A DNA stretch of 56,907 nt from an uncultured Victivallales bacterium (GTDB lineage: Bacteria > Verrucomicrobiota > Lentisphaeria > Victivallales > UBA1829), in contig CAZORN010000002.1 in the NCBI GenBank assembly GCA_964581935.1, positions 1 to 56,907 of the forward strand, read 5' to 3'. The notes under the pieces are model-generated. The model ran no database searches. It was not told the DNA's origin and saw only the letters and a program-made list of their open reading frames with translations. Made by a program: the position numbers and the translations under genes. Shown here one piece after another: positions 9,388 to 56,907 of this stretch (position 1 is its first letter; the number at the start of each line of letters is the position of its first letter).

Positions 9388-9993
9388 TTACCGGCGGACC
9401 AGAAGAATGCGGTCGAGGCTGATTCCATTTTCCTTTTTGGAATTCTTTACATAAGCGGGTCCGGTGAACTTCAGGGACACCAGCACTTCCACCTTGTTCC
9501 GGTCTCCGCCGTCTTCCCTGTACCAGCGGCTCAGGTCCTGCTGCAGATACCATGTCGGATGACCGTAGAACAGGGTTTTCGGCTCCAGAACGACTTTCCC
9601 AAGAGAATAGAAATGGTATTTTTCATCCTGCGGGATCTGGTCTTTCTTCAGCCGCAGAAAAGCCAATGTAGTGCGGGAGGTCCGCCCGGCAATGCCCATG
9701 GTGAATTCCTGCGCGTGGAACTTAGCGGTATCCTCCTCTTTCCGGAGAGTTCCGACCGACATGGCTTTTCCGCCCGCGGCCTCGGAATCATCGGCAATGG
9801 TCACACCGAATTTCTTCACTTCCCCCAGAGAGGTGAAATCATTTGAGACGATCTCAAACACTTCCTTTCCCGTGCAATTTTCCGGAACCGGATATTTCGC
9901 GCCGGGTTTTGGAGAAAGATCCACAATATCCTGTGCGAAAACGGCATAGGAAGCGCAGACGAGAATCAGACAACGGAAGAGTATGGCTTTCAT
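9388..9993 (-). CDS. secreted stand-alone copy of the C-terminal domain of the adjacent DUF4838-like protein
   Basis: It has a signal peptide (MKAILFRCLILVCASYAVFAQ). It shares KPGA[KR]YPVP, DD[SP]EAAG[GS]KAM, IPQDEKYHFY, TWYLQQ[DE]L, VSLKFTGPAYVK and DRILLVR with the last ~185 aa of the upstream gene. The start lies 1 nt after that gene's stop. Confidence 0.85.
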   Translation of the reverse strand: MKAILFRCLILVCASYAVFAQDIVDLSPKPGAKYPVPENCTGKEVFEIVSNDFTSLGEVKKFGVTIADDSEAAGGKAMSVGTLRKEEDTAKFHAQEFTMGIAGRTSRTTLAFLRLKKDQIPQDEKYHFYSLGKVVLEPKTLFYGHPTWYLQQDLSRWYREDGGDRNKVEVLVSLKFTGPAYVKNSKKENGISLDRILLVRR

Positions 9994-9994
9994 A

Positions 9995-12409
9995 TCATCG
10001 TTCCTTTCCTTTCAGGGATTGTTTTTCGGAGTCGGGGGTTTCCGTCCGCACCAGAAGAATCCGGTCCATCCAGAAAGCGTTTTCCTTTTGGGAGCCTTTC
10101 ACATAGGCGGGCCCGGTGAACTTCAGCGAAACGAATACCCGGTAGCGGTTTTCTTCCGGGTCATCCTTCCGGAAAAAACCGCCCAGCTCCTGCTGAAGGT
10201 ACCAGGTTTCATGCAGCCAGAGCAGGGCGGACGGTTCCAGTCTCACCGTGCCGAGCGGGTAAAAATGGTATTTTTCGTCCTGCGGGATACGGTCTTTCGG
10301 AATCACTGTGGAAAGAAGCATTCTGCCGTTGACGCGGTCCCGGATTCCCGCGGTAAACGCTTTGGCATGGAACGCCTCCGGATCGGCGATTCTCGGGGAC
10401 TTGTCCACGCCCATGGCCTTGCTTCCGGCCGCCTCGGGGTCATCGTTCATGCGGACGCCGTGAAATGTCAGGTCTCCGAACTTGTTGAAATCAGGGGCGG
10501 TGATTTCGTAAATTTCCTTTCCCGCAAGCTCACGCGGAACCGGATATCGAGCGCCCGGTTTGCGGACCCCGTTCTCGCGGAAAAATGCTTTGATCTGCGC
10601 CATGGATTTTTCAAGGGTTCCTCCCGCCAGTGTTTGACGGGCGGCGTCGGGCCAGTCTTTGGAAAGACGCGCGGCGACCTCGCCGGCATCCGGCTTGAAC
10701 CCGGGGATGTCGGGACAGCAGAGCAGTCGAGCGATGTCCAGCGGGACGCGTTCCCGGAGGACTCGCGAAGTCCTCTCCGGATCGTTCCGTACCGCATTCA
10801 GCGCGGACTGGATGAACCCTTCCGCCTTCCGGAAGAAATCAGGAGTAAGATATTTGCGCTCCAAAACGCCGCGGGTATCCAGCTCGGGTGCGGTCCGCTG
10901 AGCCTCGGCCAGCAGGTCGTAATACTCTCTCATGAAGGGCGCGGCCTCACCGTAACAGGCTTTCATGAAACGTCCGATCAGAGGCTCCAGTTCCTGACGC
11001 GGATCGCATTTGAGTTTGTATCCGGCCCACACCCGCAGCGCATGGAAGGTCGCGGTTTCCGGAAATTCGCATTCGCTGAAAACATAGTCGGCTCCGTTGT
11101 CGAGATATGTATTCAGATTTGAACGGATGGACTCCAGATTGACAAGGCATGCGTTCTTGTCCGGATTCGATCCGAAAAGAACCCAGTAATTCCATATCTG
11201 AATGGAACCGATGGAACTCCAGGTACGAAGCGATTCAAGGGTTTTCCGATTCCTCGGAAGCGTGAGCGGACGCATGGTGTCGAAGCCGCTGCCCCAGCGG
11301 CTCGGAGATACGCGGACCGTCACGTTCCGGCGCGGAACGATTCCTTCGGTCGGCGCTTTCTCGAAGGAAAGATAGGCGGACGTCTGAATCCGAACGTCGG
11401 GATACTTTTTTTCCACGGCCTCCGCGACGGCATTGACGAACTCCAGCATCCCTCCGGAAGGACTTCCGTATTTTTTCGTCCGGGCCGTGCATTCCGTACA
11501 GTGGCAGATATCCTTGATGTCATTGACCGAAAGATTGTAGAGCCGGGGCGGATTGTCCGGATTCAGCTTCCGGTCTTTTTCGATGTAGCCGATCATCTGG
11601 ACGGCAAATTTTTCTCTCGCGCGCGGACTCGAAAAACAAATCTGGCCGGGACCGAAAATATCAATGGGGCGAACCCGTTTTCCCGCCTCGTCGAGAGAAT
11701 AACAGTCCTCATACCCGTTTTCAGGCCATTCCTTCACGTAAAAAAACAGGGTGTTGAGCGGCTGTGGACTGCCGAACACCGGCGTATATCCGATTGCGGC
11801 GGACCGTTTTTCCGGAATTTTTTCCTCCCAGAAAATGTTCTCCCGACAGCGGGAAAGGAAGCGCATCCTGCGTTCGGGATCGTTGCTGTAACAGACATAG
11901 ATGCCGCGGTAAGCGAAGGCCGGTTTTCCGCGGAGATCGATTTTTTCCGGAAGAAGAATCGGGGCAGGCGGCGGAATATAGGTAAATCGTTCATCGACCC
12001 ATACGATTCCGGCAAATTTTTCGAGGAATTCATACGCGCCGTAAAGAGTCCCGCGGGGGTTGCCTCCGACGATTGCAACGCCGTCCGGAAAAGACCGGAT
12101 CAGCCACTCTTCCCGTCCCATGGAATCCGGGTCGATTTTTTTCGCGGCCGCAAAACGGGTCCGGCCCACGTAAATCGCATTTTTCAGGGCAGGCGAAGAG
12201 GATTCCTTCACACAGGGAATCTTGGTTCCCGATGCCTTGCCGAGATGTTCGGCAAGTTCCTGCGCAGCGTTCAATTCGGAAGGAGCGGGAGACTCCGGGC
12301 AAACCACAACGGAAATATCGCCGGGAATTGAAACGTTCACGGGAGCATCCCCGCGGACTATTCCAAAAGACATGAGGAAAAGGATCAGTGCAGAAATGAA
12401 AATTCGCAT
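9995..12409 (-). CDS. exported DUF4838-like putative glycoside hydrolase
   Basis: Start chosen at ATG 12409 (MRIFISALILFLMSFG signal peptide) with GGAGG 6 nt upstream. The N-terminal region (AAQELAEHLGKASG...IYVGRT...GNPRGTLYGAYEFLEKFAGIVW) is typical of DUF4838 and GH20/GH67-N-like proteins. Confidence 0.85.
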   Translation of the reverse strand: MRIFISALILFLMSFGIVRGDAPVNVSIPGDISVVVCPESPAPSELNAAQELAEHLGKASGTKIPCVKESSSPALKNAIYVGRTRFAAAKKIDPDSMGREEWLIRSFPDGVAIVGGNPRGTLYGAYEFLEKFAGIVWVDERFTYIPPPAPILLPEKIDLRGKPAFAYRGIYVCYSNDPERRMRFLSRCRENIFWEEKIPEKRSAAIGYTPVFGSPQPLNTLFFYVKEWPENGYEDCYSLDEAGKRVRPIDIFGPGQICFSSPRAREKFAVQMIGYIEKDRKLNPDNPPRLYNLSVNDIKDICHCTECTARTKKYGSPSGGMLEFVNAVAEAVEKKYPDVRIQTSAYLSFEKAPTEGIVPRRNVTVRVSPSRWGSGFDTMRPLTLPRNRKTLESLRTWSSIGSIQIWNYWVLFGSNPDKNACLVNLESIRSNLNTYLDNGADYVFSECEFPETATFHALRVWAGYKLKCDPRQELEPLIGRFMKACYGEAAPFMREYYDLLAEAQRTAPELDTRGVLERKYLTPDFFRKAEGFIQSALNAVRNDPERTSRVLRERVPLDIARLLCCPDIPGFKPDAGEVAARLSKDWPDAARQTLAGGTLEKSMAQIKAFFRENGVRKPGARYPVPRELAGKEIYEITAPDFNKFGDLTFHGVRMNDDPEAAGSKAMGVDKSPRIADPEAFHAKAFTAGIRDRVNGRMLLSTVIPKDRIPQDEKYHFYPLGTVRLEPSALLWLHETWYLQQELGGFFRKDDPEENRYRVFVSLKFTGPAYVKGSQKENAFWMDRILLVRTETPDSEKQSLKGKER

Positions 12410-12422
12410 TGGCAACCTCCGT

Positions 12423-13202
12423 TCAAGGCCTGTCTTTGATTCTGAACCAGTCACCGAGCACAGCCTGAGGCCGGGAGGGGTTCGTGTAATAATAACGGTA
12501 GCGGTTGGTCTCCTTGACCCATGTCATGGGATAAGAGTCGGCGCGTCCGTCGGCGGTCATCACCATTTTCTGCATGTTGTGCATGGCAAGGATTCCTTTC
12601 ATGGCGGTGTAAGCGGCATTCTCGGTGTCTAGGTGGTTTACCCAGTAGCCCTCGCCGCGAGCCCATTCGGAGGGCTGGATGCTGTCGCCGGGATTCAGAT
12701 ACAGGGAATCGGAACAGAAGACGGTGACGATCATGGAGTCGTATCTGGAGCGGCCCACACGGAAAATATAGGTGTATTTCGAGCTGTCGCGCTGGCCGAG
12801 CTGCTGTTCGATCATATAATTGATGTTGCGAGGAAGATTATTTTCATACCGCCACGCGGCGGCAGTGTAGTCCACGGTTTTGAGGGTCGTCGGGTCGGTC
12901 GGACAGGACAACGTTTTCAGTTGAATGTATTTTCCTTCCTTGAGCATTTGCCAGGAAGGCTTGTAGGTATTGGTATCCACCGTGCCTCCGTCGTAACGTC
13001 CGCAGGTGGGAAAATAATCGTTGCAGTCGCCGCTGTAGAGATGAATGGCCAGACCGCACTGTTTGAGGTTGCTCAAACAGGCTGTCCCCTGCGCCTTCTT
13101 TTTCGCGCTGTTCAGCGCGGGAAGCAGCATTCCCGCCAGAATGGCGATGATCGCAATCACGACCAGCAGTTCGATCATTGTAAAAAGCGTCTTTACCCGC
13201 AT
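12423..13202 (-). CDS. prepilin-type N-terminal cleavage/methylation domain protein with H-X9-DG motif (pseudopilin-like), copy 1
   Basis: N-terminus [49 protein letters not shown]-terminal [12 protein letters not shown] is H-X9-DG. It lies 13 nt upstream of the DUF4838-like gene. Confidence 0.9.
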
Positions 13203-13488: not shown

Positions 13489-14382
13489 ATGGAGTCCGAT
13501 TTAGCAATTATGATTAAAAATTTAACAAAAAGTTCCTGGGAGATGTTTGATTCCGGGAAAGGGAATTATGTAAATGAAGATTCCGCTTTGGGAGAATCAT
13601 TTCCGCATCATATCCAGTTATATTGCGCAAAGGGACTCCGGCCGGACTGCATCGATACGATCCACAACCGCTGGCTGCTCAGCGTCAATCTCGGCTGCGA
13701 GTGCGTCCTGGAACTGGACAACCTTCCGGTCCGCCTGAAAAAAGGATCGTGCATTCTGGTACATCCGTATCAGAGGCATCTCTTCAAGCACACCAACGCC
13801 GGAGTTTTCCGGCTTCAGCTGGCTTTTGACATGACGGTGAAAGAACCTCCGCTTCCGCCGGGGGAAAGCATTCCCATGGACAAAAAGCTGTTCGAGCTTC
13901 TGTGCATGATCGTGAACTATGCGCGGGACAGTGCTTCCGTGCGGGACATGGAGCTGCTGCTTTCGCTGATCCTGAGCCGCATGCAGCAGCTGAACGCCCA
14001 GTCGGTCATCCCGAATCCGGAACGGATTGTCGGCAACATTTCTCTGGCGGCTGAGGTTTACCGCTATGTTTCGGAAAACCTTGAAAAGGATTTGCGGCTG
14101 GAGTCCCTGACGAAAAAATTCGGGTGCTCCGCCTCGAAATTGCGCCGGATTTTCTTTGAGCAATCCGGTCTTGGAATTGGCAAATACATTACCCGGATCC
14201 GCATGCTCAAGGCTGTTTTCCATCTTTCCAAGGATGATAAAAACATCTCCGAGATCGCGGATCTTTGCGGCTATTCGTCCATACAGACTTTCAGCAGGGC
14301 TTTTCACGCATGGCAGAAGATGTCTCCGAACCGATTCCGCAAGGAGAGCCGTTACCTCAAATCCATGAAGAAACGGCGCTGA
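13489..14382 (+). CDS. AraC family transcriptional regulator
   Basis: C-terminal double helix-turn-helix: LESLTKKFGCSASKLRRIFFEQSGLGIGKYITRIRMLKAV...ISEIADLCGYSSIQTFSRAFHAWQKMSPNRFRK. It is divergent from pseudopilin copy 1. An alternative start is ATG 13510. Confidence 0.85.
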   Translation: MESDLAIMIKNLTKSSWEMFDSGKGNYVNEDSALGESFPHHIQLYCAKGLRPDCIDTIHNRWLLSVNLGCECVLELDNLPVRLKKGSCILVHPYQRHLFKHTNAGVFRLQLAFDMTVKEPPLPPGESIPMDKKLFELLCMIVNYARDSASVRDMELLLSLILSRMQQLNAQSVIPNPERIVGNISLAAEVYRYVSENLEKDLRLESLTKKFGCSASKLRRIFFEQSGLGIGKYITRIRMLKAVFHLSKDDKNISEIADLCGYSSIQTFSRAFHAWQKMSPNRFRKESRYLKSMKKRR

Positions 14383-14396
14383 CAGCGTTGTCTTGG

Positions 14397-16190
14397 TCAG
14401 CTTTGCGAGGACGCCGAAACCGTGAATGGAGGCGTTTCCGCAGAGCAGGGGAGGACGATGCGGAAGGAGCATCCCGCGTTGGGGACGCTCTCGAGCTCGG
14501 CGCGTCCGCCGTGAAGCTGGGCGATATGCTTGACGATCGCCAGCCCGAGTCCGGTTCCGCCGAGAGAACGGCTGCGTTCCTTGTGGACGCGGTAGAAGCG
14601 TTCGAAGATCCGCCCCTGGTGTTCCGGGGCAATCCCGATTCCGTAGTCGCGGACCTCGATTACGGCGGATTCGCCCTCCCGGTAGAGGGAAAGGTCGATG
14701 GTTTTGGAACCGCTGTATTTGATGGCGTTGTTGACGAGGTTGACGACCGCCTGTTCGAGGAGCTGACAATCGCCTTCGAGCTCAAGGGACTCCTGCTTTT
14801 TGACGGAAAGCGAGATTCCGTTCTGGACCGCTCTTTCCGAACAGAGGGAGATGGCGTTGGAAAGCATGGACTCCAGCTTCACGCGGGTGAACTCCTTTTT
14901 CGGGTCGAGCTGCTTGCGTTCCAGCGCGGAAAGGCTCAGGATGTCCTGCACCAGCATGTTCAGACGGTTGGTCTGGTCGAAGAGCATGGAGATGAGCTTG
15001 TCGAACTGTTCTTTGCTGAGGTCGGGTTCTTCGCGGATGGTTTCGACGGCGCCCACGATGCAGGTCAGCGGAGTCTTGATCTCATGGGAGACATTCGCGA
15101 TGAAGTCGCTGCGGAAGGATTCGAGCTTACGGAGATTCGTGAGGTCGGTGATCGTCAGGAGGAGGAACCGGGTATCGTTCTGGCGGATGGTGTTTCCCTT
15201 GATGAGAAGCGTGAGGGGGCCGTGATCCTTCTGGAGGGTGAACTCCTTTTCGAAGGAGTCGCCGGTCTGGAAGCTGTTGCGCGCCAGCGGGAGGAGCTCC
15301 GAAATGCCGGACCGTGCCAGGTTGAAACGGGCGTTCTGCTGGAGTCCGAAGAGCTTTCCCCCGGCATGATTGAATTTCTGGACATCCCCGTTGGAGGAGA
15401 AAAGGAGAACGGCTTCGGTCATGGCGTTGAGGATCGCTTCTTTCTCGTTGCGTTCGGCGGTCATCAGGGAAAGGTGTTCGCGGAGGCTTTCGGCCATTTC
15501 GGAGACGCCAAAGGCAAGCTCGCGGACGATTCCGCGCGGGGGAACGGGAATTGCGGTATCGAGCTCGCCGTTCGTAACGGATTCTACGGCGCTCTGGAGT
15601 TCGAGGAGCGGGCGTCGCACGTGAAGGATGATGTAGGCTGTCAGGAAGCCGACGAGGGTTGCGCCGAGGAGCAGGGCGAAAAGCATGTTTCTTTCGGCCA
15701 TGCGGAGGACCTGAAAGACATTGTCTGTGGAGACGGCCGAGCGGAGGACGAAATCGCCGTGATCGGTTTTGAGGAGTACGGCATGGTAGATCATCCACTG
15801 GTTGAGGCTTTCGCTGTAGCGGGTGACCGTGGCGGGGAGGCCCTGAAAGGCGTTCCGGATTTCCGGGCGGTTCAGGTGGTTGGAGAGGAGGGCGGCGTTT
15901 TCGGAAGAATCCGCACGGACTTTGCCGGAAGCGTCGATGAGGGTCAGGCGGAGAGTGTCCTTATCGAAATTGTCGCAGAATTTCCGGGCCTCGTCGAAAT
16001 GTCCGGTGTTGAGAATCGGGGTCAGGATCATGGAAACAAGGCGTGTTTCCTGCGCGATGTTGTTTTCGGCCTGCCGCATGTAGGCATTTTCGAAATAGGA
16101 AAGGTGCCAGAAAAGAAGGACCGCGGCAAGAGCCATGATCAACGCGGCGGAAACCGGAAGAAAAAAGAGAACTTTGTCGCGGTTCTTCAT
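14397..16190 (-). CDS. phoR: phosphate-regulon sensor histidine kinase
   Basis: H-box NVSHEIKTPLT, N-box NLVNNAIKYS, and G-boxes DYGIGI and GGTGLGLAIVKHI. The N-terminus has a TM segment. The gene lies 2 nt downstream of phoB in the pst-phoU cluster. Confidence 0.9.
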   Translation of the reverse strand: MKNRDKVLFFLPVSAALIMALAAVLLFWHLSYFENAYMRQAENNIAQETRLVSMILTPILNTGHFDEARKFCDNFDKDTLRLTLIDASGKVRADSSENAALLSNHLNRPEIRNAFQGLPATVTRYSESLNQWMIYHAVLLKTDHGDFVLRSAVSTDNVFQVLRMAERNMLFALLLGATLVGFLTAYIILHVRRPLLELQSAVESVTNGELDTAIPVPPRGIVRELAFGVSEMAESLREHLSLMTAERNEKEAILNAMTEAVLLFSSNGDVQKFNHAGGKLFGLQQNARFNLARSGISELLPLARNSFQTGDSFEKEFTLQKDHGPLTLLIKGNTIRQNDTRFLLLTITDLTNLRKLESFRSDFIANVSHEIKTPLTCIVGAVETIREEPDLSKEQFDKLISMLFDQTNRLNMLVQDILSLSALERKQLDPKKEFTRVKLESMLSNAISLCSERAVQNGISLSVKKQESLELEGDCQLLEQAVVNLVNNAIKYSGSKTIDLSLYREGESAVIEVRDYGIGIAPEHQGRIFERFYRVHKERSRSLGGTGLGLAIVKHIAQLHGGRAELESVPNAGCSFRIVLPCSAETPPFTVSASSQS

Positions 16191-16192
16191 GA

Positions 16193-16882
16193 TCAGAAAC
16201 CCTGTTTGAGGCGGTAGCCGACGCCGCGGACCGTTTCGATATTGATGCCCCAGTCGCCGAGTTTGCGGCGGAGGTTGACGATCTGTACGTCGATGGCGCG
16301 TTCCGTGACGGGGTAGTCTTCGCCCTTGATGCGGCTGATGATCTGGTTGCGGGTGTAGACGCGGCCCGGATGAGAGGCGAAGAGTTTCAGGATTTCGAAT
16401 TCGCTCAGGGTGAGGTCGAGTTCATTCCCCTGGAGCTTGGCGCTGTGGGTGTCGGAATTGATGACGAGTCCGGAGCAGCGGATTTCGGAACTGGTTTCCT
16501 GTTCGGCGAAGCCGCGGAGCTGAGCCCGGACGCGCGCAATGAGGATCTTGCGGCTGAAGGGTTTGGTGATGTAGTCGCACGCGCCCATTTCGAGTCCGAT
16601 GACGATGTCGGTCTCCTCGCTTTTGGCGGTGAGCATGATGACGGGAATGTTGCGGGTCTCTTCGCCTTCCTTGAGCTTTCGGCAGACGGTGAGGCCGTCG
16701 ATGCCGGGAAGCATGAGGTCGAGGAGGATGAGGTCGGGCAGGCGGAGCTGGGCCTGCCGCAGTCCGTCCTCGCCGTTTTCGGCGGTGTAGATGGTGGAGT
16801 ATCCGGCGGTTTCGAGAGTGAGTTTGACGAGGTCCCGGATCGGGGCTTCGTCTTCGATCAGCAGAATCTTTTCATTTGCCAT
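16193..16882 (-). CDS. phoB: phosphate-regulon response regulator (OmpR/PhoB family)
   Basis: Receiver domain (MANEKILLIEDEAPIRDLV...PDLILLDLMLPGIDG...MLTAK) plus a winged helix (LTLSEFEILKLF...VDVQIVNLRRKL...TVRGVGYRL). Start chosen at ATG 16882. The ORF track extends to 16960. Confidence 0.92.
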   Translation of the reverse strand: MANEKILLIEDEAPIRDLVKLTLETAGYSTIYTAENGEDGLRQAQLRLPDLILLDLMLPGIDGLTVCRKLKEGEETRNIPVIMLTAKSEETDIVIGLEMGACDYITKPFSRKILIARVRAQLRGFAEQETSSEIRCSGLVINSDTHSAKLQGNELDLTLSEFEILKLFASHPGRVYTRNQIISRIKGEDYPVTERAIDVQIVNLRRKLGDWGINIETVRGVGYRLKQGF

Positions 16883-17549
16883 GTCTGCGCCCTTCATGTT
16901 TGTGACGTACGATGTTTCCGCTTTCAAGATAGATGATGTCTTCGCAGATATTCGTCGCAATATCCGCGATGCGTTCCAGACATCGCGACACGGTCAGGCA
17001 ATCCATATAATAGCCAGACTCGTTCGGATGCTTCAGGATCATGTCCCGCACCCGGGAATAGTTTTCCCGGTGAATGTCGTCCACGGCATTGTCCATGCGG
17101 ATCACCTCGGTTGCGAGGACGACATCGTGGTAGGTCATGGAATCCAGAGATTTCCGGAACATCTCGCACGCACGGTTTACCATACACGAGAAATCGATTT
17201 TTTCAATCGGGGAATCCGCATAGTTGACCATATCCGGGACCCGTTCGGCGATGCTGGCCGCGAGATCTCCGGCGCGTTCAATTTCGTTATTGACTTTCAT
17301 GATGGTGACGACCTGCCGGAGATCGCCGGCCACCGGCTGGTAGAGCGCGAGGATCTTGAGGCATTCCTCCTCGATCTTGATTTCGGCGTCGTCGATGGCA
17401 TCGTCGCCCGCCTTGACTTTTGCGGCATCGTCCACCTGAAGCTTCTCCACCGCGTTGACCGAGAGAAGGATGGCCGCCTCGACCTGCGCCGCGACCTCGG
17501 AGATCATCTGGTTGAGTCCTTCGAGAGCCTGGATAAAATGGGCTTTCAT
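16872..17549 (-). CDS. phoU: phosphate signalling complex protein PhoU
   Basis: A two-repeat PhoU architecture with DDAIDDAEIKIEEEC...ERAGDLAASIAE and NAVDDIHREN...LERIADIATNICE. Confidence 0.92.
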   Translation of the reverse strand: MKAHFIQALEGLNQMISEVAAQVEAAILLSVNAVEKLQVDDAAKVKAGDDAIDDAEIKIEEECLKILALYQPVAGDLRQVVTIMKVNNEIERAGDLAASIAERVPDMVNYADSPIEKIDFSCMVNRACEMFRKSLDSMTYHDVVLATEVIRMDNAVDDIHRENYSRVRDMILKHPNESGYYMDCLTVSRCLERIADIATNICEDIIYLESGNIVRHKHEGRRHGK

Positions 17550-17567
17550 TGTTCCGAATCCTCCTTA

Positions 17568-18323
17568 TTAACCGAAGCGTCCGGTAATGTATTCTTCTGT
17601 TTTTTTGATTTTTGGATTGGTGAAAATCTGGCGGGTTTCTCCGAATTCGATGATTTCGCCCTTGAAGAAGAAGGCGGTGAAATCGCTGATCCGGGCGGCC
17701 TGCTGCATATTGTGCGTGACGATCACGATGGTGAACCGGCTTTTGAGATCAAACATGAGTTCCTCGATTTTGAGCGTGGCAACGGGGTCGATGGCGCTGG
17801 TGGGCTCGTCCATGAGAAGAACTTCCGGTTCGGTGGCGATGGCGCGTGCGATGCACAGCCGCTGCTGCTGTCCGCCCGACAGCGCAAGTCCGCTTGACTT
17901 GAGCTTGTCCTTGACCTCTTCCCAGATGGAGGCGCCGCGCAGGGCTTTTTCCACCCGTTCGGCAGTTTCCTTCGGGGAGAGCTTATAATGGAGCTTGAGC
18001 GGGTAGGCAACATTGTCGAATACGGACATGGGAAACGGGGTGGGTTTCTGGAAAATCATGCCGACCTTCCGGCGGAGTTCGAGCACATCGACGCCGGGGG
18101 CGAGGATATTTTCACCGTCGAGGAGGACTTCCCCCGTGACCTTCTGTTCGCGATAGAGCTCGAAAATGCGGTTGTAAATGCGTAAGTGGGTGGATTTTCC
18201 GCAACCGGAGGGTCCGATCACCGCCGTAATCCTGTTTTCCTCGACGCAGAGATTGTTGTTGAAAAGCGCCTGATGGCTTCCGTAGTGAAAATTGATATTT
18301 TTAGCCTCGATTTTAATGCTCAT
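17568..18323 (-). CDS. pstB: phosphate ABC transporter ATP-binding protein
   Basis: Walker [10 protein letters not shown], signature LSGGQQQRL, Walker [12 protein letters not shown], and the PstB-typical C-terminus YITGRFG. The true start is ATG 18323 (MSIKIEAKN). The 551-aa ORF-track entry reads on through pstA out of its proper frame. Confidence 0.95.
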
Positions 18324-19174
18324 GTTTTTTTCTCCCGGAAAATGATTCTTGTGGACAAATTGATCACCAGAACGAGCACCGTGACGACGAGGGCCGCGCC
18401 CCAGCCGGCCTGGTGCATGACCTCGAATGGAGAGTTGGTGGAGTATTCCGTGATGAGCACGGGCATGTTGGCGGTCGGACCGGTGAAGTAATTCTTCGGC
18501 CAGCCGTCGGAAAACAGGGCGGTGAACAGCAGGGGAGCGGTCTCCCCGCTGACGCGGGAAAGCGAAAGGAGGATTCCTGTGAGAAGTCCCTTGCGTGCAC
18601 TCAGACAGACGATGCAGAGGGTGGCGCGGGTCCGCGTCATGCCGAGGGCGAGGGCGGATTCGCGGAGGGCGTCCGGAACCATGCCGAGCATGTCTTCCGT
18701 GGTCCGCATGATGACCGGAAACATGATGATCGCCAGCGCGACGGAGGCCGCGAAGCCCGAGAAGTTGCCGGTCGGGAGAACCAGAATGATATAGGCGAAG
18801 AGCCCGACGAGCACGGAGGGAATTCCCATCATGACGTTGGCGGAGAAGCGGAGGATGTTGGAAACGGTTTTCCAGTCTTTGTATTCGGCGAGGAAGATGC
18901 CGGCGCAGAGGGCGGGCGGCACGGCGAGCACGGCGGCTCCGAACGTGATCATGACCGACCCGAGGAGGGCGTTTGCGATGCCGCCCCGGACGGCGCCGTA
19001 GGGCATGGTGGGCGTCGTGAAGAAGGAGAGGTTCATGGAGCGGAAACCGTAGCAGGCGACGGTGTAAAGGATCCAGAGCATGGCTCCGACCGCCAGCAGG
19101 ACCGCGGTGGTGGAGAAAATCTTCACGAATTGATTGGTCAGTTTCCGCCAGGTGAGGGGTCTTCGCTTCATCAT
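18320..19174 (-). CDS. pstA: phosphate ABC transporter permease PstA
   Basis: Multi-TM permease with ALGMTR...[15 protein letters not shown]. The start MMKRRPLTW at 19174 overlaps the pstC stop (ATGA), and the stop overlaps the pstB start. Confidence 0.9.
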
Positions 19175-20085
19175 CTTGCTTCTCCCCGTTTGGCTCCGGT
19201 CGCATGGAGATAGTATTGAGCAAGGACCTGGATGCCGAAGCTCATGACGAGGAGGACCAGTCCCAGCGCGAAAAGGGCGCTTCGCTGGAGGCCCTGCGCC
19301 TCGGCGAAGTGGTTGGCGAGGGTGGAGGCGATGGTGGCGGAACCGGAAAAGATGGAAGAGGGCATTTCCATGATGTTGCCGATCACGAACAGCACCGCCA
19401 TGGTTTCGCCGAGCGCGCGGCCGAGTCCGATGAAGACTCCGCCGAGGATTCCGCGGATTCCGTAGCGCAGGACGATATCCCGGGCGGTTTCCCACTTCGT
19501 GCATCCGACTCCGTAGGCGGACTCCCGCAGCATCGGCGGGGTCATGCGGAACACGTCCCGCATGATCGCGCAGATGTAGGGCAGGATCATGATCGAAAGG
19601 ATCAGTCCGGCGGTCAGGATTCCGAATCCGTTGAATTCGGTGCCGATGAGGGAAAAGCGTCCCAGTCCGAGAGTCTCCGACAGGAACGGCTGAACGTATC
19701 TTTGCATCAGGGGGGCGAGGACGAAGAGTCCCCACATGCCGTAAATCACACTGGGAATGGCGGCTAAGAGGTCGATCGAATGGCTGAGGACTTCGCCGAC
19801 GATGGGCCTTGCATCCACCAGATAGAGGGCGGCGGAGAAGGCCAGCGGCAGGGCGATGACCAGAGCGATCACGGTGGTGGAAAGGGTCCCGACAATGCTT
19901 GGCAGGGCGCCGTACTTGTCATTGACCGGATCCCACTCTCTCGACCACAGGAATGGAAGGCCGAATTCGCGCCAGGCCGAGAAGCTGCTGATGAAGAGCT
20001 GGATGAAGAACCCGAGCATCAGCACGCCGACCAGTCCGGCGCAAATCAGACAGAACCATTTGAAAGCCGTGTCATACCGGAACAT
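19171..20085 (-). CDS. pstC: phosphate ABC transporter permease PstC
   Basis: Multi-TM permease with the EAA-type loop [43 protein letters not shown]. Confidence 0.9.
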
Positions 20086-20094
20086 GAGGTCTCC

Positions 20095-20442
20095 TTATTC
20101 GAGGCCGTCGCGCTTGACCGCGATGACGGTCTTGGCTTTGTCGGACAGGACCAGGTTTCCCAGCTTGTCGAAAGCGATATCCGCGTTCCAGTCGGTTTTT
20201 TCGCTGATCCAGTGGATCACTTCGACGTTTTCCCACGGAATGATGCGGATCAGGGTGTCGCCGCAATGGATCTGGGAGCGGATCTGGTCGACGATCCGGC
20301 GGAAGTGGAAAGTTCTTCCCTTGACCACCACGTATTTGGCCGTTTCCTCGACCACGTTTCCGATGATGATGTGGGTATGCGCTTCCGGGTATTCCTTCTT
20401 GCAGCGCAGACGGATGTTTTTCCCTTTCAGATACTCTTTCAT
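20095..20442 (-). CDS. hypothetical 115-aa cytoplasmic protein embedded between pstS and pstC
   Basis: A clean ORF, 32 nt after the pstS stop and 9 nt before the pstC start. There is no signal peptide or TM segment. No family recognised. Confidence 0.7.
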   Translation of the reverse strand: MKEYLKGKNIRLRCKKEYPEAHTHIIIGNVVEETAKYVVVKGRTFHFRRIVDQIRSQIHCGDTLIRIIPWENVEVIHWISEKTDWNADIAFDKLGNLVLSDKAKTVIAVKRDGLE

Positions 20443-20474
20443 GTTCCTCCTTGATTCAGGATTTCAGAACCGGT

Positions 20475-21470
20475 TTACTTCAGGATTTCCTTGCGGATCA
20501 GAGCCACCACATTTTCCGGAATCGGAACATAGTTGAGCTTGGCCGCGGCGGTGCTCCCGGTGGTAAAGCACCACTCGAAATATTTCACCAGAGACTCTCT
20601 GACTTCTTTCTTGCAGTCCTTGCGGATCAGGATGTAGGTTACGCCGGTGATCGGCCAGGATTCGTCGCCGGGCTGGTCGGTCAGGACCATGTAGAATCCG
20701 GGGGCGTGCTCCCAGTCGGCGTTCATCGCGCTCGCGTTGAAATTCTTCACGGAAGGTTCCACGAACTTGCCGGCTTTGTTTTCAAGCAGGGTCATGGCGA
20801 GCTTTGCCTCCACGGCGTAGGTATATTCCGTGTAGCCGATGCTGCCGCGGATGCGTGCGACGTTGTTGCAGACGCCCGGGTTTTTCTGTCCGCCGATGCC
20901 CACGGGCCATTTGACGGCCGAGCCGGAGCCGACCTTGTCAGCCCATTCCTTGGAGATTTTCGAGAGATAGTTCGTGAAGATGAAGCTGGTGCCGCTGGCA
21001 TCGGCCCGGCGGACCACCGTGATTCTCATGCGGGGCAGGGTCAGGGACGGATTGGACGCCTTGAGCTTGGGATCGTCCCAGCTCGTGATCTTGCCGAGGA
21101 AAATGTCCGCAAGCGCTTCGCGGCTGAGGTTCAGTTCGGCATTCTTCACTCCGGGGAGGTTCACGATCACGACCACTCCGCCGGTCAGCATCGGAAACTG
21201 GAGGAGTCCGTGTTTCTGCTGGTCCTCAAGGGTCAGGGGATCGTCCGTGCCTGCGAAATCGATTGTTCTGGCCTTGATCTGGTTCACGCCCGCACCGGAA
21301 CCGATGCTCTGGTAGTTGACGCGGACGGAGGGAGTGCTCTGGCTGTAAGTATAGGTCCAGTTCTGGTAGACGGGAGCCGGGAAGCTGGCGCCGGCTCCGT
21401 TCAGGGTCTGTTCGGCTCCGACCGCTCCGAGGGAGGCCGCCGCGATGGCTGTTATCAGGATGTTCTTCAT
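20475..21470 (-). CDS. pstS: phosphate ABC transporter substrate-binding protein
   Basis: Signal peptide, then LNGAGASFPAPVYQNW...YQSIGSGAGVNQI...FAGTDDPL...GSIGYTEYTYA, which are typical PstS motifs. Confidence 0.92.
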   Translation of the reverse strand: MKNILITAIAAASLGAVGAEQTLNGAGASFPAPVYQNWTYTYSQSTPSVRVNYQSIGSGAGVNQIKARTIDFAGTDDPLTLEDQQKHGLLQFPMLTGGVVVIVNLPGVKNAELNLSREALADIFLGKITSWDDPKLKASNPSLTLPRMRITVVRRADASGTSFIFTNYLSKISKEWADKVGSGSAVKWPVGIGGQKNPGVCNNVARIRGSIGYTEYTYAVEAKLAMTLLENKAGKFVEPSVKNFNASAMNADWEHAPGFYMVLTDQPGDESWPITGVTYILIRKDCKKEVRESLVKYFEWCFTTGSTAAAKLNYVPIPENVVALIRKEILK

Positions 21471-21549: not shown

Positions 21550-21552
21550 GAA

Positions 21553-23160: not shown

Positions 23161-23163
23161 CCT

Positions 23164-24627: not shown

Positions 24628-24710
24628 TTCTCCTTGTTTTTTCGCCGGTTCTTTTTTCCGGCGCAGCTGACAATTTTCCCCCTTGTCAAGCATCTAATTT
24701 AAATTCGGAT

Positions 24711-25835: not shown

Positions 25836-26144
25836 ATGAACATCTACGTCGGTAACATGCCGTACTCCACCTCGGAGGAAGAACTCAACGCCCTGTTCGG
25901 AACTCATGGAAGCGTCAGCCGCGTCCACATCGTGATGGATCGCGAAACAGGTCGGGCCAAAGGATTTGCCTTCGTCGAAATGCCCAATGATGCGGAAGCC
26001 AAAGCCGCTCTGGAAGCAATCAACGGCATCTCGATGGGCGGACGTGCCCTCGTCGTTACGGAAGCCCGTCCCCGCGAGGAAAAGCCCCGCGGCGAACGTC
26101 GTCCCTTCCATCGCGGCGGCGATCGCGGCCCCCGCGGCGAATAA
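25836..26144 (+). CDS. RRM-type RNA-binding protein
   Basis: RNP2 is IYVGNM and RNP1 is KGFAFVEM. The C-terminal tail is Arg/Gly-rich. Confidence 0.9.
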   Translation: MNIYVGNMPYSTSEEELNALFGTHGSVSRVHIVMDRETGRAKGFAFVEMPNDAEAKAALEAINGISMGGRALVVTEARPREEKPRGERRPFHRGGDRGPRGE

Positions 26145-26357: not shown

Positions 26358-26640
26358 ATGAGACATGAAGCGAAGAAAAAATCCTCGGTGTCCGCTCTCG
26401 ACGCCGGGCTTGACATTCTGGTTCGACGATCATGAAATTTTTCCGGTCCGCATGAGACTCGCCGCGCCCGTCCTGAATTCCAGCGGACGGATCGTCGGAG
26501 CCGTCGGAACGTCCTGGACCCGCATTTCTGTCCCGCCGAAACGCTTCTCCGACTTCACCGCCGAACTGCTCCGCCATGCCGCCCTTCTTACTGGAAAAAT
26601 TACCTCCTTACTCGATCAGCAGAACCGCGGGCCAGACATG
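26358..26640 (+). pseudogene. IclR-family regulator remnant (N-terminal ~20 aa joined out of frame to the C-terminal ~55 aa)
   Basis: The frame from ATG 26358 gives MRHEAKKKSSVSALDAGLDILVRRS*, resembling an IclR N-terminal V-x-S/A-L-x-x-x-L-D-I-L. The next frame gives MRLAAPVLNSSGRIVGAVGTSWTRISVPPKRFSDFTAELLRHAALLTGKI, resembling the IclR C-terminal effector-domain end. The central ~180 aa are missing. The 3' part overlaps the convergent 1325-aa gene. Confidence 0.45.
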
Positions 26641-39002: not shown

Positions 39003-39109
39003 AGAGAATCGAAAATGGGAAACGGGGCAGAATGCACGGTTGGATTGCTTCGTGTCTTCTCGCTCGGTATGGGCTGAAAATCAACTATCAAATATCATAA
39101 GGATTTGTC

Positions 39110-45741: not shown

Positions 45742-45759
45742 GAAGTCTTTGAAAACATC

Positions 45760-45800
45760 GCCGCGGAATCCGGCAGAAAACGGATTCCGCGGCTTTTTCT
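45760..45800. terminator. bidirectional rho-independent terminator between convergent genes
   Basis: A 13-bp perfect stem: GCCGCGGAATCCG (45760-45772) pairs with CGGATTCCGCGGC (45781-45793), with loop GCAGAAAA. It is followed by TTTTTCTTT. An A-rich stretch lies upstream for the opposite direction. Confidence 0.7.
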
Positions 45801-45826
45801 TTCCCGTGAAACGGAAATATCCGATA

Positions 45827-53350: not shown

Positions 53351-54214
53351 TCAGGAGCTTTTCATTTTCCGGAAAGCTCCGGGAGAGATCCCATAGCGTC
53401 TGGAAAAGTGCCGGATCAGATGGTTGGAGTCACAGAATCCGCAGTGATAGGCTATATAATCAAGCCTCTCGCCGGTAGTGCGGAGCAGAGATTCAGCCAA
53501 TTCCAGCCGCTTCTGACGTTGATATTCCAGAGGAGAACAGCCCGCGAGTTCATGGAACCGGCGGAAGAAATTGGTCCGGGAAAGACAGCAGAGCCGCGCC
53601 AGCTGGCCGACCGAAATATTTTCCCGGCAGTGGAGATTGAGATAATGGAGCGCCGGCACTGCGGCGGATACGTATTCCGATTGGCTCGCCCGGCCTCCGG
53701 CGCGGCAGAGCCGCACGAGGACAGCAACGAAAAGACCGAATGCGCAAAGGTGTTTTCCGGGCGCATCCCCGTTCAGTTCGTGTTCCAGCTGGGCAATCAG
53801 GGATTCCACGGAAGAGAGGGCTTCTTCATCAAGGTGAACGATCGGTTTTTCCGGAGATGCTTCGCGGCAGGTCGGATCGAGAAAAGAACAGAAGCAGCGA
53901 AGTTCGCCGCCGTCGAGATGGGGGAGCGGAAGTTGATCGGCATTGTAAATCAGGTTGATGAGTGCAAGATGTCTGGTATCCTCATAGGCGTGGATGCTTC
54001 CCGGATGCATGAGAATGACGTCTCCGCGCGTCAGGGGGGCGGAGCGGCCATCCGCCCAATGTACGGTATCGGTCGAGTTCAGGATGATCGCGGCTTCTGA
54101 AAATTTGTGCTCGTGAAAATTCATGTCGCGGTTTTTTCCGTAACCGATCCGGGTCAAAGCAATTTTGAGTTTTTCCAGATGCAGAGGTTGTTCCTGAAAG
54201 AAATATGTTTTCAT
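53351..54214 (-). CDS. AraC family transcriptional regulator (cupin N-terminal domain)
   Basis: The N-terminal cupin-like region is FHEHKFSEAAIILNSTDTVHWADG...GDVILMHPGSIHAY. The C-terminal helix-turn-helix is VGQLARLCCLSRTNFFRRFHELAGCSPLEYQRQKRLELA...IAYHCGFCDSNHLIRHFSRRYGISPGAFRK. Confidence 0.85.
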   Translation of the reverse strand: MKTYFFQEQPLHLEKLKIALTRIGYGKNRDMNFHEHKFSEAAIILNSTDTVHWADGRSAPLTRGDVILMHPGSIHAYEDTRHLALINLIYNADQLPLPHLDGGELRCFCSFLDPTCREASPEKPIVHLDEEALSSVESLIAQLEHELNGDAPGKHLCAFGLFVAVLVRLCRAGGRASQSEYVSAAVPALHYLNLHCRENISVGQLARLCCLSRTNFFRRFHELAGCSPLEYQRQKRLELAESLLRTTGERLDYIAYHCGFCDSNHLIRHFSRRYGISPGAFRKMKSS

Positions 54215-54610
54215 ATAGCGTCTTTTTTCTTTTGGTTTCTCACGCGCTTGTTCCGGTTTCCGTCCCGCTTTCAGGACCGCATGAACCCGTATCTGGAATA
54301 CACCGTATTGATGTGTGATATTTTTCCGGGAATACCTTCGTCCCCATATAGATTTTTCATTTTGGAACCAATATAATATTATTTGGTATTTCTGTCAAGG
54401 TGTTTCGTATTTTCAGGAGTATAATAATTCAGTGACATAGGACTTGCCAAAAAAATATGTTGGGGTGGAATTAAAAAAAACACGGATATGGAAGCAGGGA
54501 GAATCAGCTTCGATATGTGACACTTCACAGAAAAGATCCCTGATCGGCGACATCATCCGGTTTCGTTCTGAGAGAACCATGAAAAATCAACTATCATAGA
54601 AACAGGAGGA

Positions 54611-55375
54611 ATGAAGATGAAAAGGATACGCCCGGAAAGAAACCTCATGAATTTTACATTAATCGAATTGCTGATCGTCATTGCGATCATCGCGATTCTG
54701 GCGGGAATGCTGTTCCCGGCTCTTCAAAACGCCCGGGAAAGGGCGCGTGCGATTACCTGTACTTCCAATTTGAAACAGCTTGCATTGTCCATGCTGCAAT
54801 ACGTCATGGACAACAAAGACGCCTTCCCGCTCCGCATGGCGGCAGATGAGATTGGCGAAGTTTCTTGGTCCCTGACGATGATCAAAAACAAATATGCCAC
54901 CGGGAAAATGTTTCTCTGTCCGAACGGAAAAGCGTACAGCACCGCCACAAACTGGGGAGCGGACATCATAAAGAAATGGGAAACCGTTGCCGATCAGGAA
55001 TCTTTTTATGACGCGAATCCAACGAACAGGAACAAACCTTACGTTTATTCTTCCTACGGCATTACCGAATGGCTGTATCCGGATGGGGTGGATTACAGTC
55101 GCAGTCAATTCATCAAACGTTACAACCATCCTTCGCGGAAGCTCATGTTCGCCGATACGAAGGACCGCGCCAACTGGGAATTGTCTCCGCCCCGCTACAT
55201 CGGCAGCTCAACTTGCGGATATGCGGCAACCCGGACCGGCGTAATTTCTCCATGCCACACTGGAAACAAAAGTACAAATATCGCCTGGATGGACGGTCAC
55301 GTCACGACAATGACCTTTGTCAATCCTATATTCCCCTACGTTTATTTGACGACTGATTTTTTTACAACGAAATAG
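54611..55375 (+). CDS. prepilin-type N-terminal domain protein (HX9DG-like), pseudopilin-like copy 4
   Basis: N-terminus [56 protein letters not shown]. The C-terminal [16 protein letters not shown] has the DGHV motif with an 11-residue spacer. ATG 54617 is better spaced from the GGAGG. Confidence 0.9.
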
Positions 55376-55403
55376 AGCCGCTTTCAGCAGAAAGAGAGAA
55401 CCC

Positions 55404-56907
55404 ATGAAAAAAACAATCCTCCTCCTTTTCGCCTTCGCGATGTCCGTTTCCGCCGCCGAAACGCCGGTCTGGAACGGCGCCAATCAATTTTCCGGCTGGA
55501 AAGCCCTGAAAAACGTCAAATGCGAGACAACCGTCGAGCATATGGCAATAACGGAAATCGGCAAGGACTCCCAGCTGGTCCTTTCCGGGATGGCGCTTGA
55601 TCCCGCACGATGCAGAACCTTCATCTACCATTACCGGGCCGAAGGAACCGGAACAGCGGGCGGTCAGCTCTATTACACGCATGACAAGGAGAATTTTTCG
55701 GATCGGCAGAAATGGATTCTTCCCCCGCTTCAGGCCGATGGAAAGTGGCATGCCGTCACGGTAACGGAAAAGAATCTGGTCAATCCTGCGAGCTGGTTTG
55801 AAGGAGGACTGATTACTCAGCTTCGCTTCGATCCCACCGACAGCGCGGGAGGGAAGATTGAAATTTCCGAACTCCGTTTCGAGTCCGGCGCCGCTCCGCT
55901 CCCTCCGGTCACCTGGAAGCTGGATGCTCCGGAGTGGCCTGCTGTCAAAGCGGAATTCCAGAACCTCCCGGAGCCCGTTGCCAAAGGCGCTTATTTTCAG
56001 GGAAAAATGATCCGGTCCCCGAAGGATCGGATCGTGGACGGTAAACACGGCAATTTCTTTTTGCGCCGTAATTTCAGTCTGAAAGAAAAACCGGTTCAAG
56101 GCTGGCTGTTGTATACCGCCGACGACAATGCGGAAGCATTCGTCAACGGAGTATCCGTTGCGAATGCGGACAACTGGAAACGAACCATTTTCGCTGAGGT
56201 CTCCGACTGTCTTACGGCCGGGAAAAATGTTCTTGCTTTTCACTACCTGAATACACGTTCCCCGGGGGGCGTTATCGGAGAGCTTTTTGTCAAATATGCC
56301 GACGGTTCCTTTGAGCGGATCAACACCGACGAGGAATTCGTCTCCTCGGTCGAAAAGAAGACCGGCTGGAACAAGAGCGGATTTGATGATTCCAACTGGG
56401 AACGCATTGTCGGGCAGCCCGGTCCTCCCGCCAATCCATGGATAGAGAAACTGGAATACCGCGATTTTTCAAAGCCGCAGAAACTGACAGGGGCCTCGGC
56501 TTCTCCCGCCACGGTCGAAGCGGGAAAGAAAATCAGGCTCCGTTTTGATTTCGAGGGACGAATGCCGGAGCTCCCGCTTTACGCGACCCTCAAGCTGAAA
56601 AAAGGAGATTCCCTGCTCTGGAGCGAAGATATGACACTTGGCGGGGAGGCGATACGGCCTCTGGAGAATGGACGATGGCAAATAGAATTTACCTATGAGG
56701 TGCCGCTTTACCTGAACTCAGTGAAAGCGGTACTCCGTCTCGAAACGGAACTTTTCCACAAATCCGGCGGTTTTCCGGAAACGGAAATTGAGATAATCCG
56801 GGCAAAGAGTATTCCCGGTTATGGGAAAGCGCCCGTTTCCGCGGTGACAAAGACCGCTTACGGGCCCACCCTCATGGTCAACGGGAAACCGTTTTTTCCT
56901 GTTTGGG
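55404..56907 (+). CDS. exported putative glycoside hydrolase, N-terminal 501 codons (runs off the right edge)
   Basis: My own translation gives MKKTILLLFAFAMSVSAAETPVWNGANQFSGW... (signal peptide). A galactose-binding-like module follows (FFLRRNFSLKEKPVQGWLLYTADDNAEAFVNGVSV...GKNVLAFHY). The translation ends ...PTLMVNGKPFFPVW, typical of entry into a GH catalytic barrel. The gene is absent from the ORF track because it is open-ended. The track's 55362..56243 minus ORF is its shadow. Confidence 0.85.
   Translation, partial: MKKTILLLFAFAMSVSAAETPVWNGANQFSGWKALKNVKCETTVEHMAITEIGKDSQLVLSGMALDPARCRTFIYHYRAEGTGTAGGQLYYTHDKENFSDRQKWILPPLQADGKWHAVTVTEKNLVNPASWFEGGLITQLRFDPTDSAGGKIEISELRFESGAAPLPPVTWKLDAPEWPAVKAEFQNLPEPVAKGAYFQGKMIRSPKDRIVDGKHGNFFLRRNFSLKEKPVQGWLLYTADDNAEAFVNGVSVANADNWKRTIFAEVSDCLTAGKNVLAFHYLNTRSPGGVIGELFVKYADGSFERINTDEEFVSSVEKKTGWNKSGFDDSNWERIVGQPGPPANPWIEKLEYRDFSKPQKLTGASASPATVEAGKKIRLRFDFEGRMPELPLYATLKLKKGDSLLWSEDMTLGGEAIRPLENGRWQIEFTYEVPLYLNSVKAVLRLETELFHKSGGFPETEIEIIRAKSIPGYGKAPVSAVTKTAYGPTLMVNGKPFFPVW

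Follow-up and report, generated by a model that had tools for sequence, protein, structure and literature searches.

In Planctomycetota, Verrucomicrobiota and Lentisphaerota (PVC group), the DUF1559/HX9DG proteins belong to the most expanded families. The searchable literature assigns them no function, and the initial annotation of the DNA described here likewise knew of no established role for them in glycan capture or enzyme export. How PVC bacteria export giant glycan enzymes, or import whole polysaccharides without SusC/D, is unexplained, and a 2025 review still calls the players in their polysaccharide uptake unknown (PMC12673574). The stretch analysed here (the window; all 56,907 nucleotides (nt) of positions 1 to 56,907 of contig CAZORN010000002.1, from an uncultured Victivallales bacterium) carries four cassettes in which members of this family stand next to genes for exported glycan enzymes. 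Gene content and order show each cassette to be a putatively sugar-regulated operon of a Lentisphaerota bacterium, comparable to a polysaccharide utilization locus (PUL), whose predicted first structural gene is a cassette-specific DUF1559/HX9DG pilin-like member, followed by genes for glycan enzymes with signal peptides. No paper describing such an arrangement was found in the searchable literature.

The nearest described counterparts are the DUF1559 (PF07596)/H-X9-DG (TIGR04294) expansions of Planctomycetota and Verrucomicrobiota, which share with the cassette proteins a conserved N-terminus that includes C.SN.KQ, a mature size of ~240 amino acids (aa) and a C-terminal H-X9-DG. The Lentisphaerota copies, however, mostly lack Gly or Ala at position −1 (present in 4/40 versus 59/62 copies), match just the first 56 of the 268 PF07596 positions, and are preceded by sugar regulators and followed by giant proteins of carbohydrate-active-enzyme (CAZyme) type, where the other two phyla typically have a 100-200-aa lipoprotein. 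As for the pseudopilins GspG-K of type II secretion systems (T2SS) and type IV pilins, the likeness lies in the short basic leader, F1, E5 and the hydrophobic alpha1 helix, over which PilA4, geopilin, PilE and GspG match the family profile. The cassette genes, in contrast, are scattered, one per enzyme operon, and do not stand in a machine operon; their products have no Gly(−1), and their heads are unmatched.

Membrane-associated T2SS chaperones (LipB/Lif, CpaB; Harding et al. 2016, PMC4713064) form an established class of cargo-specific, adjacent, N-terminally anchored proteins. They resemble the cassette proteins in adjacency to the cargo gene (22-132 nt there, 13-107 nt here), in an N-terminal transmembrane (TM) helix with the rest placed in the periplasm, for the cassette proteins by prediction, and in their dissimilarity to each other outside the anchor. 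These chaperones are specific for their cargo, whereas such specificity is only proposed for the pilin-like proteins; their TM anchors are ordinary ones and their domains of the Lif or SRPBCC type, whereas the anchor here is the invariant pilin alpha1 helix. With SusC/SusD of Bacteroidota PULs the cassettes share a layout, repeated many times in a genome, that combines a local sugar-responsive regulator and glycan enzymes with one presumably co-regulated exported protein, which is non-catalytic, specific to its locus and quick to diverge. Unlike those loci, the cassettes have no TonB-dependent transporter, no SusD (TPR-like) fold and no transporter of any kind, and glycan binding by the pilin-like protein is a proposal. 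Finally, in the glycan-linked pili (Caldicellulosiruptor bescii PilA, Streptococcus sanguinis PilA/PilC, dextran-binding Planctomycete fibres, Akkermansia MUL pili genes) type IV filament parts are experimentally tied to the binding or uptake of polysaccharide, that of C. bescii being polysaccharide-induced. In those systems, however, a genome carries a single pilus locus complete with machine genes, and none has a separate pilin gene per enzyme operon.

Four cassettes and their pilin-like genes

A six-frame scan of the window for FT[LM]IELL gives exactly four occurrences, all at the prepilin-like genes located by the initial annotation (pp1 to pp4). The annotated spacing was reproduced as well: 13, 19, 107 and 28 nt (cassettes 1-4) separate each of them from a co-directional gene for a signal-peptide protein of more than 800 aa. 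Regulators are divergent AraC genes in cassettes 1 and 4 and GntR genes, first in the operon, in cassettes 2 and 3. Pfam matches agree with the earlier AraC, GntR, GNAT, DUF4838 and CBM calls; for the regulators described as GntR/PBP (periplasmic binding protein), the GntR part stands, and the PBP part is weak or undetected in the window copies. The cassettes contain the following features.

Cassette 1
13489-14382, plus strand: AraC-family regulator (PF12833 E=7e-18), divergent from pp1
12423-13202, minus strand: pp1, prepilin-like, DUF1559/HX9DG type, residue −1 = L (TIGR02532 20.6 bits, PF07596 24.9 bits)
9995-12409, minus strand: E1, exported 804-aa DUF4838 protein (PF16126 E=1e-47), signal peptide, 13 nt after pp1
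9388-9993, minus strand: E1b, exported 201-aa protein with signal peptide, a free-standing copy of the E1 C-terminal domain
9319-9297: terminator-like hairpin after E1b

Cassette 2
33938-33966, minus strand: near-consensus sigma-70 promoter ahead of the cassette (TTGACA-17-TATCAT, 11/12 positions)
32767-33891, minus strand: regulator with GntR helix-turn-helix (PF00392 E=2e-12) and weak PBP-like C-terminal part (Peripla_BP_3 E=0.03)
32285-32770, minus strand: GNAT acetyltransferase without signal peptide (PF00583 E=3e-12)
31425-32240, minus strand: 271-aa protein without signal peptide, no Pfam or NCBIfam match
30605-31411, minus strand: pp2, prepilin-like, residue −1 = L (TIGR02532 21.5, PF07596 31.8, TIGR04294 16.2 bits, the last under the cut-off)
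26608-30585, minus strand: E2, exported 1325-aa protein with CBM4_9 and CBM9 (PF06452 E=2e-8, PF02018 E=2e-4), signal peptide

Cassette 3
37127-37154, plus strand: perfect sigma-70 consensus promoter ahead of the cassette (TTGACA-16-TATAAT, 12/12 positions)
37187-38194, plus strand: GntR-family regulator (PF00392 E=7e-10), stop overlapping the pp3 start by 8 nt
38187-39002, plus strand: pp3, prepilin-like, residue −1 = N (TIGR02532 22.0 bits, TIGR04294 19.7 bits, cut-off 19)
39110-41959, plus strand: E3a, exported 949-aa glycoside-hydrolase-like protein, predicted GH42/GH35/GH164-type three-domain fold plus ~320-aa N-terminal beta region
41974-45741, plus strand: E3b, 1255-aa lipoprotein (lipobox LVGC), co-inherited with E3a
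45760-45793, plus strand: strong intrinsic terminator closing the cassette (13-bp stem with 10 G-C pairs, then a T run)

Cassette 4
53351-54214, minus strand: AraC-family regulator, divergent (PF12833 E=3e-19, AraC_binding)
54611-55375, plus strand: pp4, prepilin-like, H-X11-DG, residue −1 = N (TIGR02532 21.7, PF07596 33.0 bits)
55404-56907, plus strand: E4, exported protein interrupted by the window end, signal peptide, NF041573 rhamnosidase segment (E=2e-15)

The genes of cassette 2 are tightly packed, and judging from promoter, terminator, overlap and gaps, those of cassettes 2 and 3 are probably co-regulated in operons. All six partner proteins carry signal peptides, that of E3b with the lipobox. 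Among the 49 genes called in the window, 7 have a co-directional downstream signal-peptide protein of ≥500 aa, and the probability that all four pilin-like genes fall among those 7 is 35/211,876 (~1.7e-4).

According to profile searches, all four pilin-like proteins pass the prepilin N-terminal domain model TIGR02532 (20.6-22.0 bits versus a cut-off of 16.3). PF07596 (DUF1559/SBP_bac_10) is passed by pp1, pp2 and pp4, with pp3 (19.9 bits) under the gathering cut-off of 23.3, and the matches of the window copies are confined to model positions 1-56 of 268. The C-terminal H-X9(11)-DG motif that had been noted is present in all four, as H-X9-DG in pp1-pp3 and H-X11-DG in pp4; TIGR04294 (≥19 bits), however, is passed by pp3 alone, with pp2 under the cut-off and no match at E≤0.01 for pp1 and pp4. 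In an alignment of 39 homologues C44, C107, H231, D241 and G242 are invariant. The pilin character is seen in the invariant F1 and E5, the hydrophobic alpha1 helix, and leaders of 6-14 aa containing K/R, short and positively charged as in class III signal peptides (median 7 aa in 119 homologues, with mostly K/R at positions −2 and −3). Scores for the GspG, ComGC and PilA equivalog models are all far under the cut-offs; for GspG (TIGR01710, cut-off 88.85 bits) they reach 26-35 bits, from the N-terminus alone.

The N-terminal ~45 aa had been described as almost identical among the four proteins. This is true of the first ~24 residues, whereas over 45 aa pairwise identity is just 64-71%. In the 119 homologues F1-L24 is ~100% invariant and is followed by NKARE.AK...C.SN.KQ. 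Gene conversion was considered as the origin of the shared segment and rejected: its DNA is 64-70% identical among the four paralogues, and 37-53% of conserved residues use different codons, so the conservation is attributable to selection on the protein. The family is very large, with 7947 of 8000 scored candidates at E≤1e-5. About 10 additional copies lie in the flanks of 32 Lentisphaerota loci and 4 in the 57-kb window, and by extrapolation the paralogues sharing the pilin alpha1 anchor may number of the order of a hundred per genome.

Regarding the partner proteins, the N-terminus of E1 is GH67N/GH20b/GH115-like, with a weak GH115 match in PDB. E1b matches E1 residues 616-788 (E=3e-57), and a domain of the same type also ends the E1 orthologues in L094-L098. 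For the central part of E2 no family match was found, and a PDB sequence search gave nothing useful. Neither Pfam, NCBIfam nor PDB gives a sequence match for E3a; the earlier description as GH42-like holds at the level of the predicted fold, since its AlphaFold2 (AF2) model (predicted local distance difference test, pLDDT, 90.8) finds GH35, GH42 and GH164 enzymes by Foldseek at E~1e-20. Its homologues number 29 among 5.8e9 proteins. For E3b these three databases give no match either, and together E3a and E3b make up a rare, always-paired couple, almost confined to Lentisphaerota-type contigs.

Gene order and block inheritance beyond the window

For comparison, 80 loci (L001-L080) were retrieved from species-representative genomes with the shared N-terminus; they come from Lentisphaerota, Verrucomicrobiota, Planctomycetota and a few others, with taxon labels taken from record titles. 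In the 32 Lentisphaerota loci, a same-strand follower of ≥600 aa is found for 16/35 pilin-like genes versus 27/261 other genes (odds ratio (OR) 7.3, p=1.5e-6), and one of ≥800 aa for 7/33 versus 11/258 (p=0.0017). In the other phyla there is no enrichment for followers of ≥600 aa (6/51 versus 36/382). Together with the within-window count (~2e-4), this locus-level control rules out chance adjacency, and the adjacency claimed by the initial annotation is thus upheld in both settings. The Pfam families upstream of the Lentisphaerota genes (n=36) include Peripla_BP_3 (11), GntR (9) and AraC (4), while downstream neighbours include CBM9, DUF4838, Laminin_G_3, CBM4_9, beta-helix, sulfatase and GH78, and further polysaccharide lyase, heparinase, GH123, GH2 and GH20 domains.

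In Verrucomicrobiota and Planctomycetota loci the pilin-like gene is followed by a protein of 100-200 aa in 12/50 cases versus 38/378 for other genes (p=0.007), and 9 of these 12 have a lipobox. DUF1559 followers in those phyla are often lipoproteins of 120-180 aa belonging to two recurring families (for example L018:10687-11127, L024:10727-11101, L068:11203-11661, L071:10952-11449), and flanking signal-peptide genes have been described in a planctomycete (PMC8567305). Pairing with an exported partner therefore looks family-wide, and an enzyme as the partner looks specific to Lentisphaerota, save single cases in Phycisphaerae-type loci.

As blocks in different surroundings, cassettes 1, 3 and 4 are also present on other contigs, down to 28-48% identity of the pilin-like protein (orthologue loci are not independent samples). 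Cassette 3 recurs in L081-86, L093 and L091, in several forms: GntR, pilin-like gene, ~950 aa and ~1250 aa, where pilin identity is 60% and 38% and the flanks are unrelated; GntR followed by GH78, a pair of pilin-like genes, and 948 and 1279 aa; and a form in which the large genes have changed places (28% pilin identity). The identities to cassette 3 fall as follows.

L081: pilin-like protein 60%, E3a 71%, E3b 72%
L084: pilin-like protein 38%, E3a 47%, E3b 53%
L093: pilin-like protein 37%, E3a 43%, E3b 51%
L091: pilin-like protein 28%, E3a 33%, E3b 38%

On this ladder the pilin-like gene evolves slightly faster than E3a and E3b. Orthologues of the cassette 3 GntR occupy the same position in L081, L093 and L084 (65%, 40% and 37% identical, respectively). 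Cassette 1 has its counterpart in L097, with a divergent AraC and a full-length pp1 orthologue (39.5% identical) upstream of the E1 orthologue (43%). In the cassette 4 loci (L099-L101) the place of pp4 is taken by orthologues with 69% and 48% identity, and L099 and L100 share the divergent AraC; E4 is 79% identical to a 1189-aa protein of L099, which is followed by a GH78-type rhamnosidase. An analogue of cassette 2 is found in L049 (GntR, pilin-like gene, 1210-aa protein). Taken together, these comparisons show regulator, pilin-like gene and exported glycan enzymes to be a module inherited as a block, and its gene order to be a rule at the level of the phylum. Enzyme orthologues without a pilin-like gene also occur (L092, L094, L095 and L098, contigs without a taxon label), which fits a lineage-specific export or display service.

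These data bear on the reading that the genes are merely co-located, without specific partnership, either as members of a numerous family or with heads that diversify for other reasons, such as escape from phages or predators, the genes being carried in induced operons just so that they are expressed when the secretion machine is needed. The huge size of the family and the copies in locus flanks speak for it, as do heads whose similarity is not always matched by that of the enzymes. It is nevertheless very improbable, given the enrichment over other genes of the same loci and in the window, the fixed position and strand after the regulator and before exported proteins, and the three cassettes that keep orthologous pilin-like genes with orthologous enzymes down to 28-48% identity while the flanks differ. 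Head-similar pairs are also enriched for enzyme-similar pairs (OR 14, p=2e-7), an excess partly owed to the sampling design.

Several further features of the window were recorded. A near-identical 15-nt motif, (G/A)AAAATCAACTATCA, at 39076-39090 and 54582-54596 (plus strand), 15-20 nt upstream of the E3a and pp4 start codons, was put down to chance: it has 4 window matches at ≤3 mismatches, 9 of 100 shuffles do as well, and none of 90 related loci contains it. DUF6786 and polysaccharide deacetylase genes at 2520-4426 (plus strand) encode proteins without signal peptides and lie 50 kb from cassette 4. Both recur inside the operon of the pp4 orthologue in L101 (L101:4948-6763), which suggests that they are functionally linked to the rhamnosidase cassette. 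A XerC/D-type tyrosine recombinase (4612-5577, plus strand) and a small RRM-type RNA-binding protein (25836-26144, plus strand) are apparently unrelated to the cassettes.

Position −1, the head domain and possible roles

Prepilin peptidase normally requires Gly, or rarely Ala, at position −1, as known from PilD studies. In the window the residues preceding F1 are N and L, twice each (window positions 13184, 31366, 38211 and 54653 for pp1-pp4), and only 4 of 119 pp3 homologues have G/A there, much as in the 40 Lentisphaerota copies. Even among orthologues of one cassette the residue varies (N, K, I, V, F, S). This loss of Gly(−1), a new result of the present analysis, coexists with an unchanged F1-L24, and it falls in the same phylum as the enzyme pairing. 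With Gly(−1) missing, the processing of the Lentisphaerota copies as pilins is uncertain: either their peptidase has a relaxed specificity, or the proteins are left uncleaved as membrane anchors. In L091, the proteins encoded just upstream of two pilin-like genes (L091:2299-3237 and L091:12224-12874) end in PEP-CTERM-like sorting tails (…IPEPSAAALLLASAALLWRRRTG), and the pilin-like genes of this locus retain Gly(−1).

The second of these options, taken by itself, would make the protein a bitopic inner-membrane protein anchored by its N-terminal helix that never enters a filament and acts as a periplasmic chaperone for giant enzymes or as an oligosaccharide binder or sensor. Besides the rarity of G/A at −1 and the variability of this residue among orthologues, it draws on three of the four sequence-level features of T2SS chaperones being found here (adjacency, N-terminal TM helix, periplasmic C-terminus; PMC4713064) and on the fractionation of N_methyl+SBP_bac_10 proteins with membranes in Tuwongella (PMC8567305). 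In a plain anchor, however, there would be no need for hundreds of paralogues to keep F1, T2, E5 and another 20 residues unchanged. The short basic class III leader is retained, F1 of the profile falls on residue 1 of the mature PDB pilins, and a peptidase relaxed at −1 would explain the same data, so that this reading appears improbable.

As for the remainder of the protein, the topology predicted from sequence and model is one hydrophobic helix after the basic leader, with a hydrophilic, beta-rich rest facing the periplasm. In the AF2 model of pp3, with an overall pLDDT of 71, a helix spans residues 11-61 (pLDDT >90) and the head is beta-rich. The model has no Foldseek match to PDB folds at E≤0.001, the best being PilA4 through the helix (E=0.25), and the profile of 39 homologues matches the PDB pilins PilA4, geopilin, PilE and GspG over alpha1 only. 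A GspG-, lectin- or SusD-like head was rejected on these grounds. Heads contain 10.1% W+Y versus 5.3% in other proteins of the same loci, and are also rich in G, S and N.

This composition is among the points in favour of a glycan-capture pilus, in which a SusD-like 'fishing' pilin would be cleaved and polymerised, or placed at a fibre tip, and its head would bind polysaccharide, keeping it at the cell surface for the enzymes expressed alongside or drawing it in by retraction. Such a role would suit the presence of one pilin-like gene per operon regardless of the number or kind of enzymes, the similar heads that occur with differing enzyme sets, and a gene placed first in the operon, as for an abundant structural subunit. 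There are also precedents: gold-labelled dextran binds pili-like fibres of Planctomycetes, where the players are still unknown (PMC5394234, PMC12673574), mucin uptake in Akkermansia needs pili genes (PMC12418764), C. bescii PilA is xylan-induced and binds xylan (10.1101/614800), and S. sanguinis has a glycan-binding minor-pilin complex (PMC9934059). In profile and Foldseek searches, however, the head has no lectin, CBM or SusD similarity, and Gly(−1), normally needed for filament assembly, is absent. Translational coupling to the regulator in several cassettes (8-nt overlap) argues against very high expression, and elsewhere, in other phyla, members of this family have small lipoproteins and not enzymes as partners. 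We regard capture as rather unlikely, though nearly as well supported as the escort reading given next.

The reading we favour, tentatively and as nearly an even call, is that the pilin-like protein is an escort or adaptor for the exported proteins encoded with it. It is preferred because the pairing with a partner is family-wide and fits the T2SS-chaperone pattern; since the family pairs with small lipoproteins in other phyla, a protein partner would be the more general theme. With moderate confidence, the protein would be a plug-in subunit of a shared machine. Its N-terminal ~24 invariant and next ~20 strongly conserved residues would insert in the inner membrane and dock into one T2SS/type IV filament machine, encoded elsewhere in the genome and common to all cassettes. 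The fast-evolving head of ~190 aa, facing the periplasm or the exterior, would confer cassette specificity on this machine, recognising the co-encoded exported protein or proteins and bringing them to the secretin, to be exported or displayed on the surface. It would thereby be a counterpart, in the shape of a pilin, to the cargo-specific T2SS chaperones. Given the missing Gly(−1), the escort model allows for a cleaved, polymerised subunit as well as for an uncleaved membrane anchor.

A number of observations weigh against escort. T2SSs are not known to need a cognate pseudopilin per cargo. No docking (dockerin-like) module common to the partner enzymes was found, only E1 and E1b sharing a domain. 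In 32 pairs similar heads accompany dissimilar enzymes, whereas an enzyme-specific binder should track its enzyme more closely; in L087, for example, a head of pp3 type stands beside CBM9 and DUF4838 enzymes, and a single pilin-like gene serves operons of one to five different enzymes. The aromatic, G-, S- and N-rich composition of the heads equally suits carbohydrate binding, and the head model is moderately confident and matches no known fold. Moreover, the 80 loci were selected by similarity to the shared N-terminus, and their genes were called with a crude, home-made, composition-scored open reading frame (ORF) caller. The gene-order rule put forward by the initial annotation extends beyond the window, while the evidence does not choose between the two roles it had offered, SusD-like glycan capture and enzyme export or display.

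The same annotation had reported no pilus or T2SS ATPase, platform protein or prepilin peptidase in the window. A Pfam scan of the window ORFs indeed gives none of these, but some secretion or pilus hardware is present: two tandem secretin genes that the annotation had missed.

21553-24693, minus strand: two tandem secretin genes (PF00263 E=4e-18 and 5e-5), partial GspD/PilQ matches, outside any cassette

They encode proteins of 535 and 509 aa, both with signal peptides, and directly downstream of them (14397-21470) lie genes for a PstS-like binding protein, a permease, an ABC ATPase and a histidine kinase/response regulator pair. The Pfam matches of window ORFs of at least ~150 aa include no TonB-dependent receptor, SusC or SusD family, and none of the cassettes contains a transporter in the Pfam scan. 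The tandem secretins may belong to the shared machine of the escort model. When the cultured Lentisphaerae strain zth2 is given laminarin, expression rises for a T2SS cluster and for four secretin genes in tandem (PMC11361711 supplementary file 2); in cultured Lentisphaerae, secretins and GspD/E/F are polysaccharide-induced. Filaments of 0.4-8 um, read as filamentous phages, were seen in Lentisphaerae cultures solely upon polysaccharide addition (PMC11361711); given the polysaccharide-linked pilin-like genes, one may speculate that some of them could be pilin filaments.

Implications for polysaccharide use in Lentisphaerota

Because every pilin-like paralogue of the cassettes comes with its own regulator and set of enzymes, single-operon experiments become possible in cultivable strains (Victivallis, WC36, zth2). 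The cassettes also provide an annotation rule for finding glycan-degrading operons, including those with enzymes outside all Pfam families (E3a and E3b are examples). That Gly(−1) is lost beside an invariant mature N-terminus poses a separate question, namely how such proteins are processed.

A wider proposal, plausible if somewhat on the doubtful side, is that polysaccharide use in Lentisphaerota follows a 'plug-in pilin' logic. One T2SS/type IV machine would be reprogrammed by perhaps at least 100 glycan-inducible paralogues, each fixed in one enzyme operon, processed, or deliberately unprocessed, without the canonical Gly(−1), and giving specificity to export, display or capture. If true, this logic would be the functional counterpart of the SusC/D paradigm for the whole phylum.

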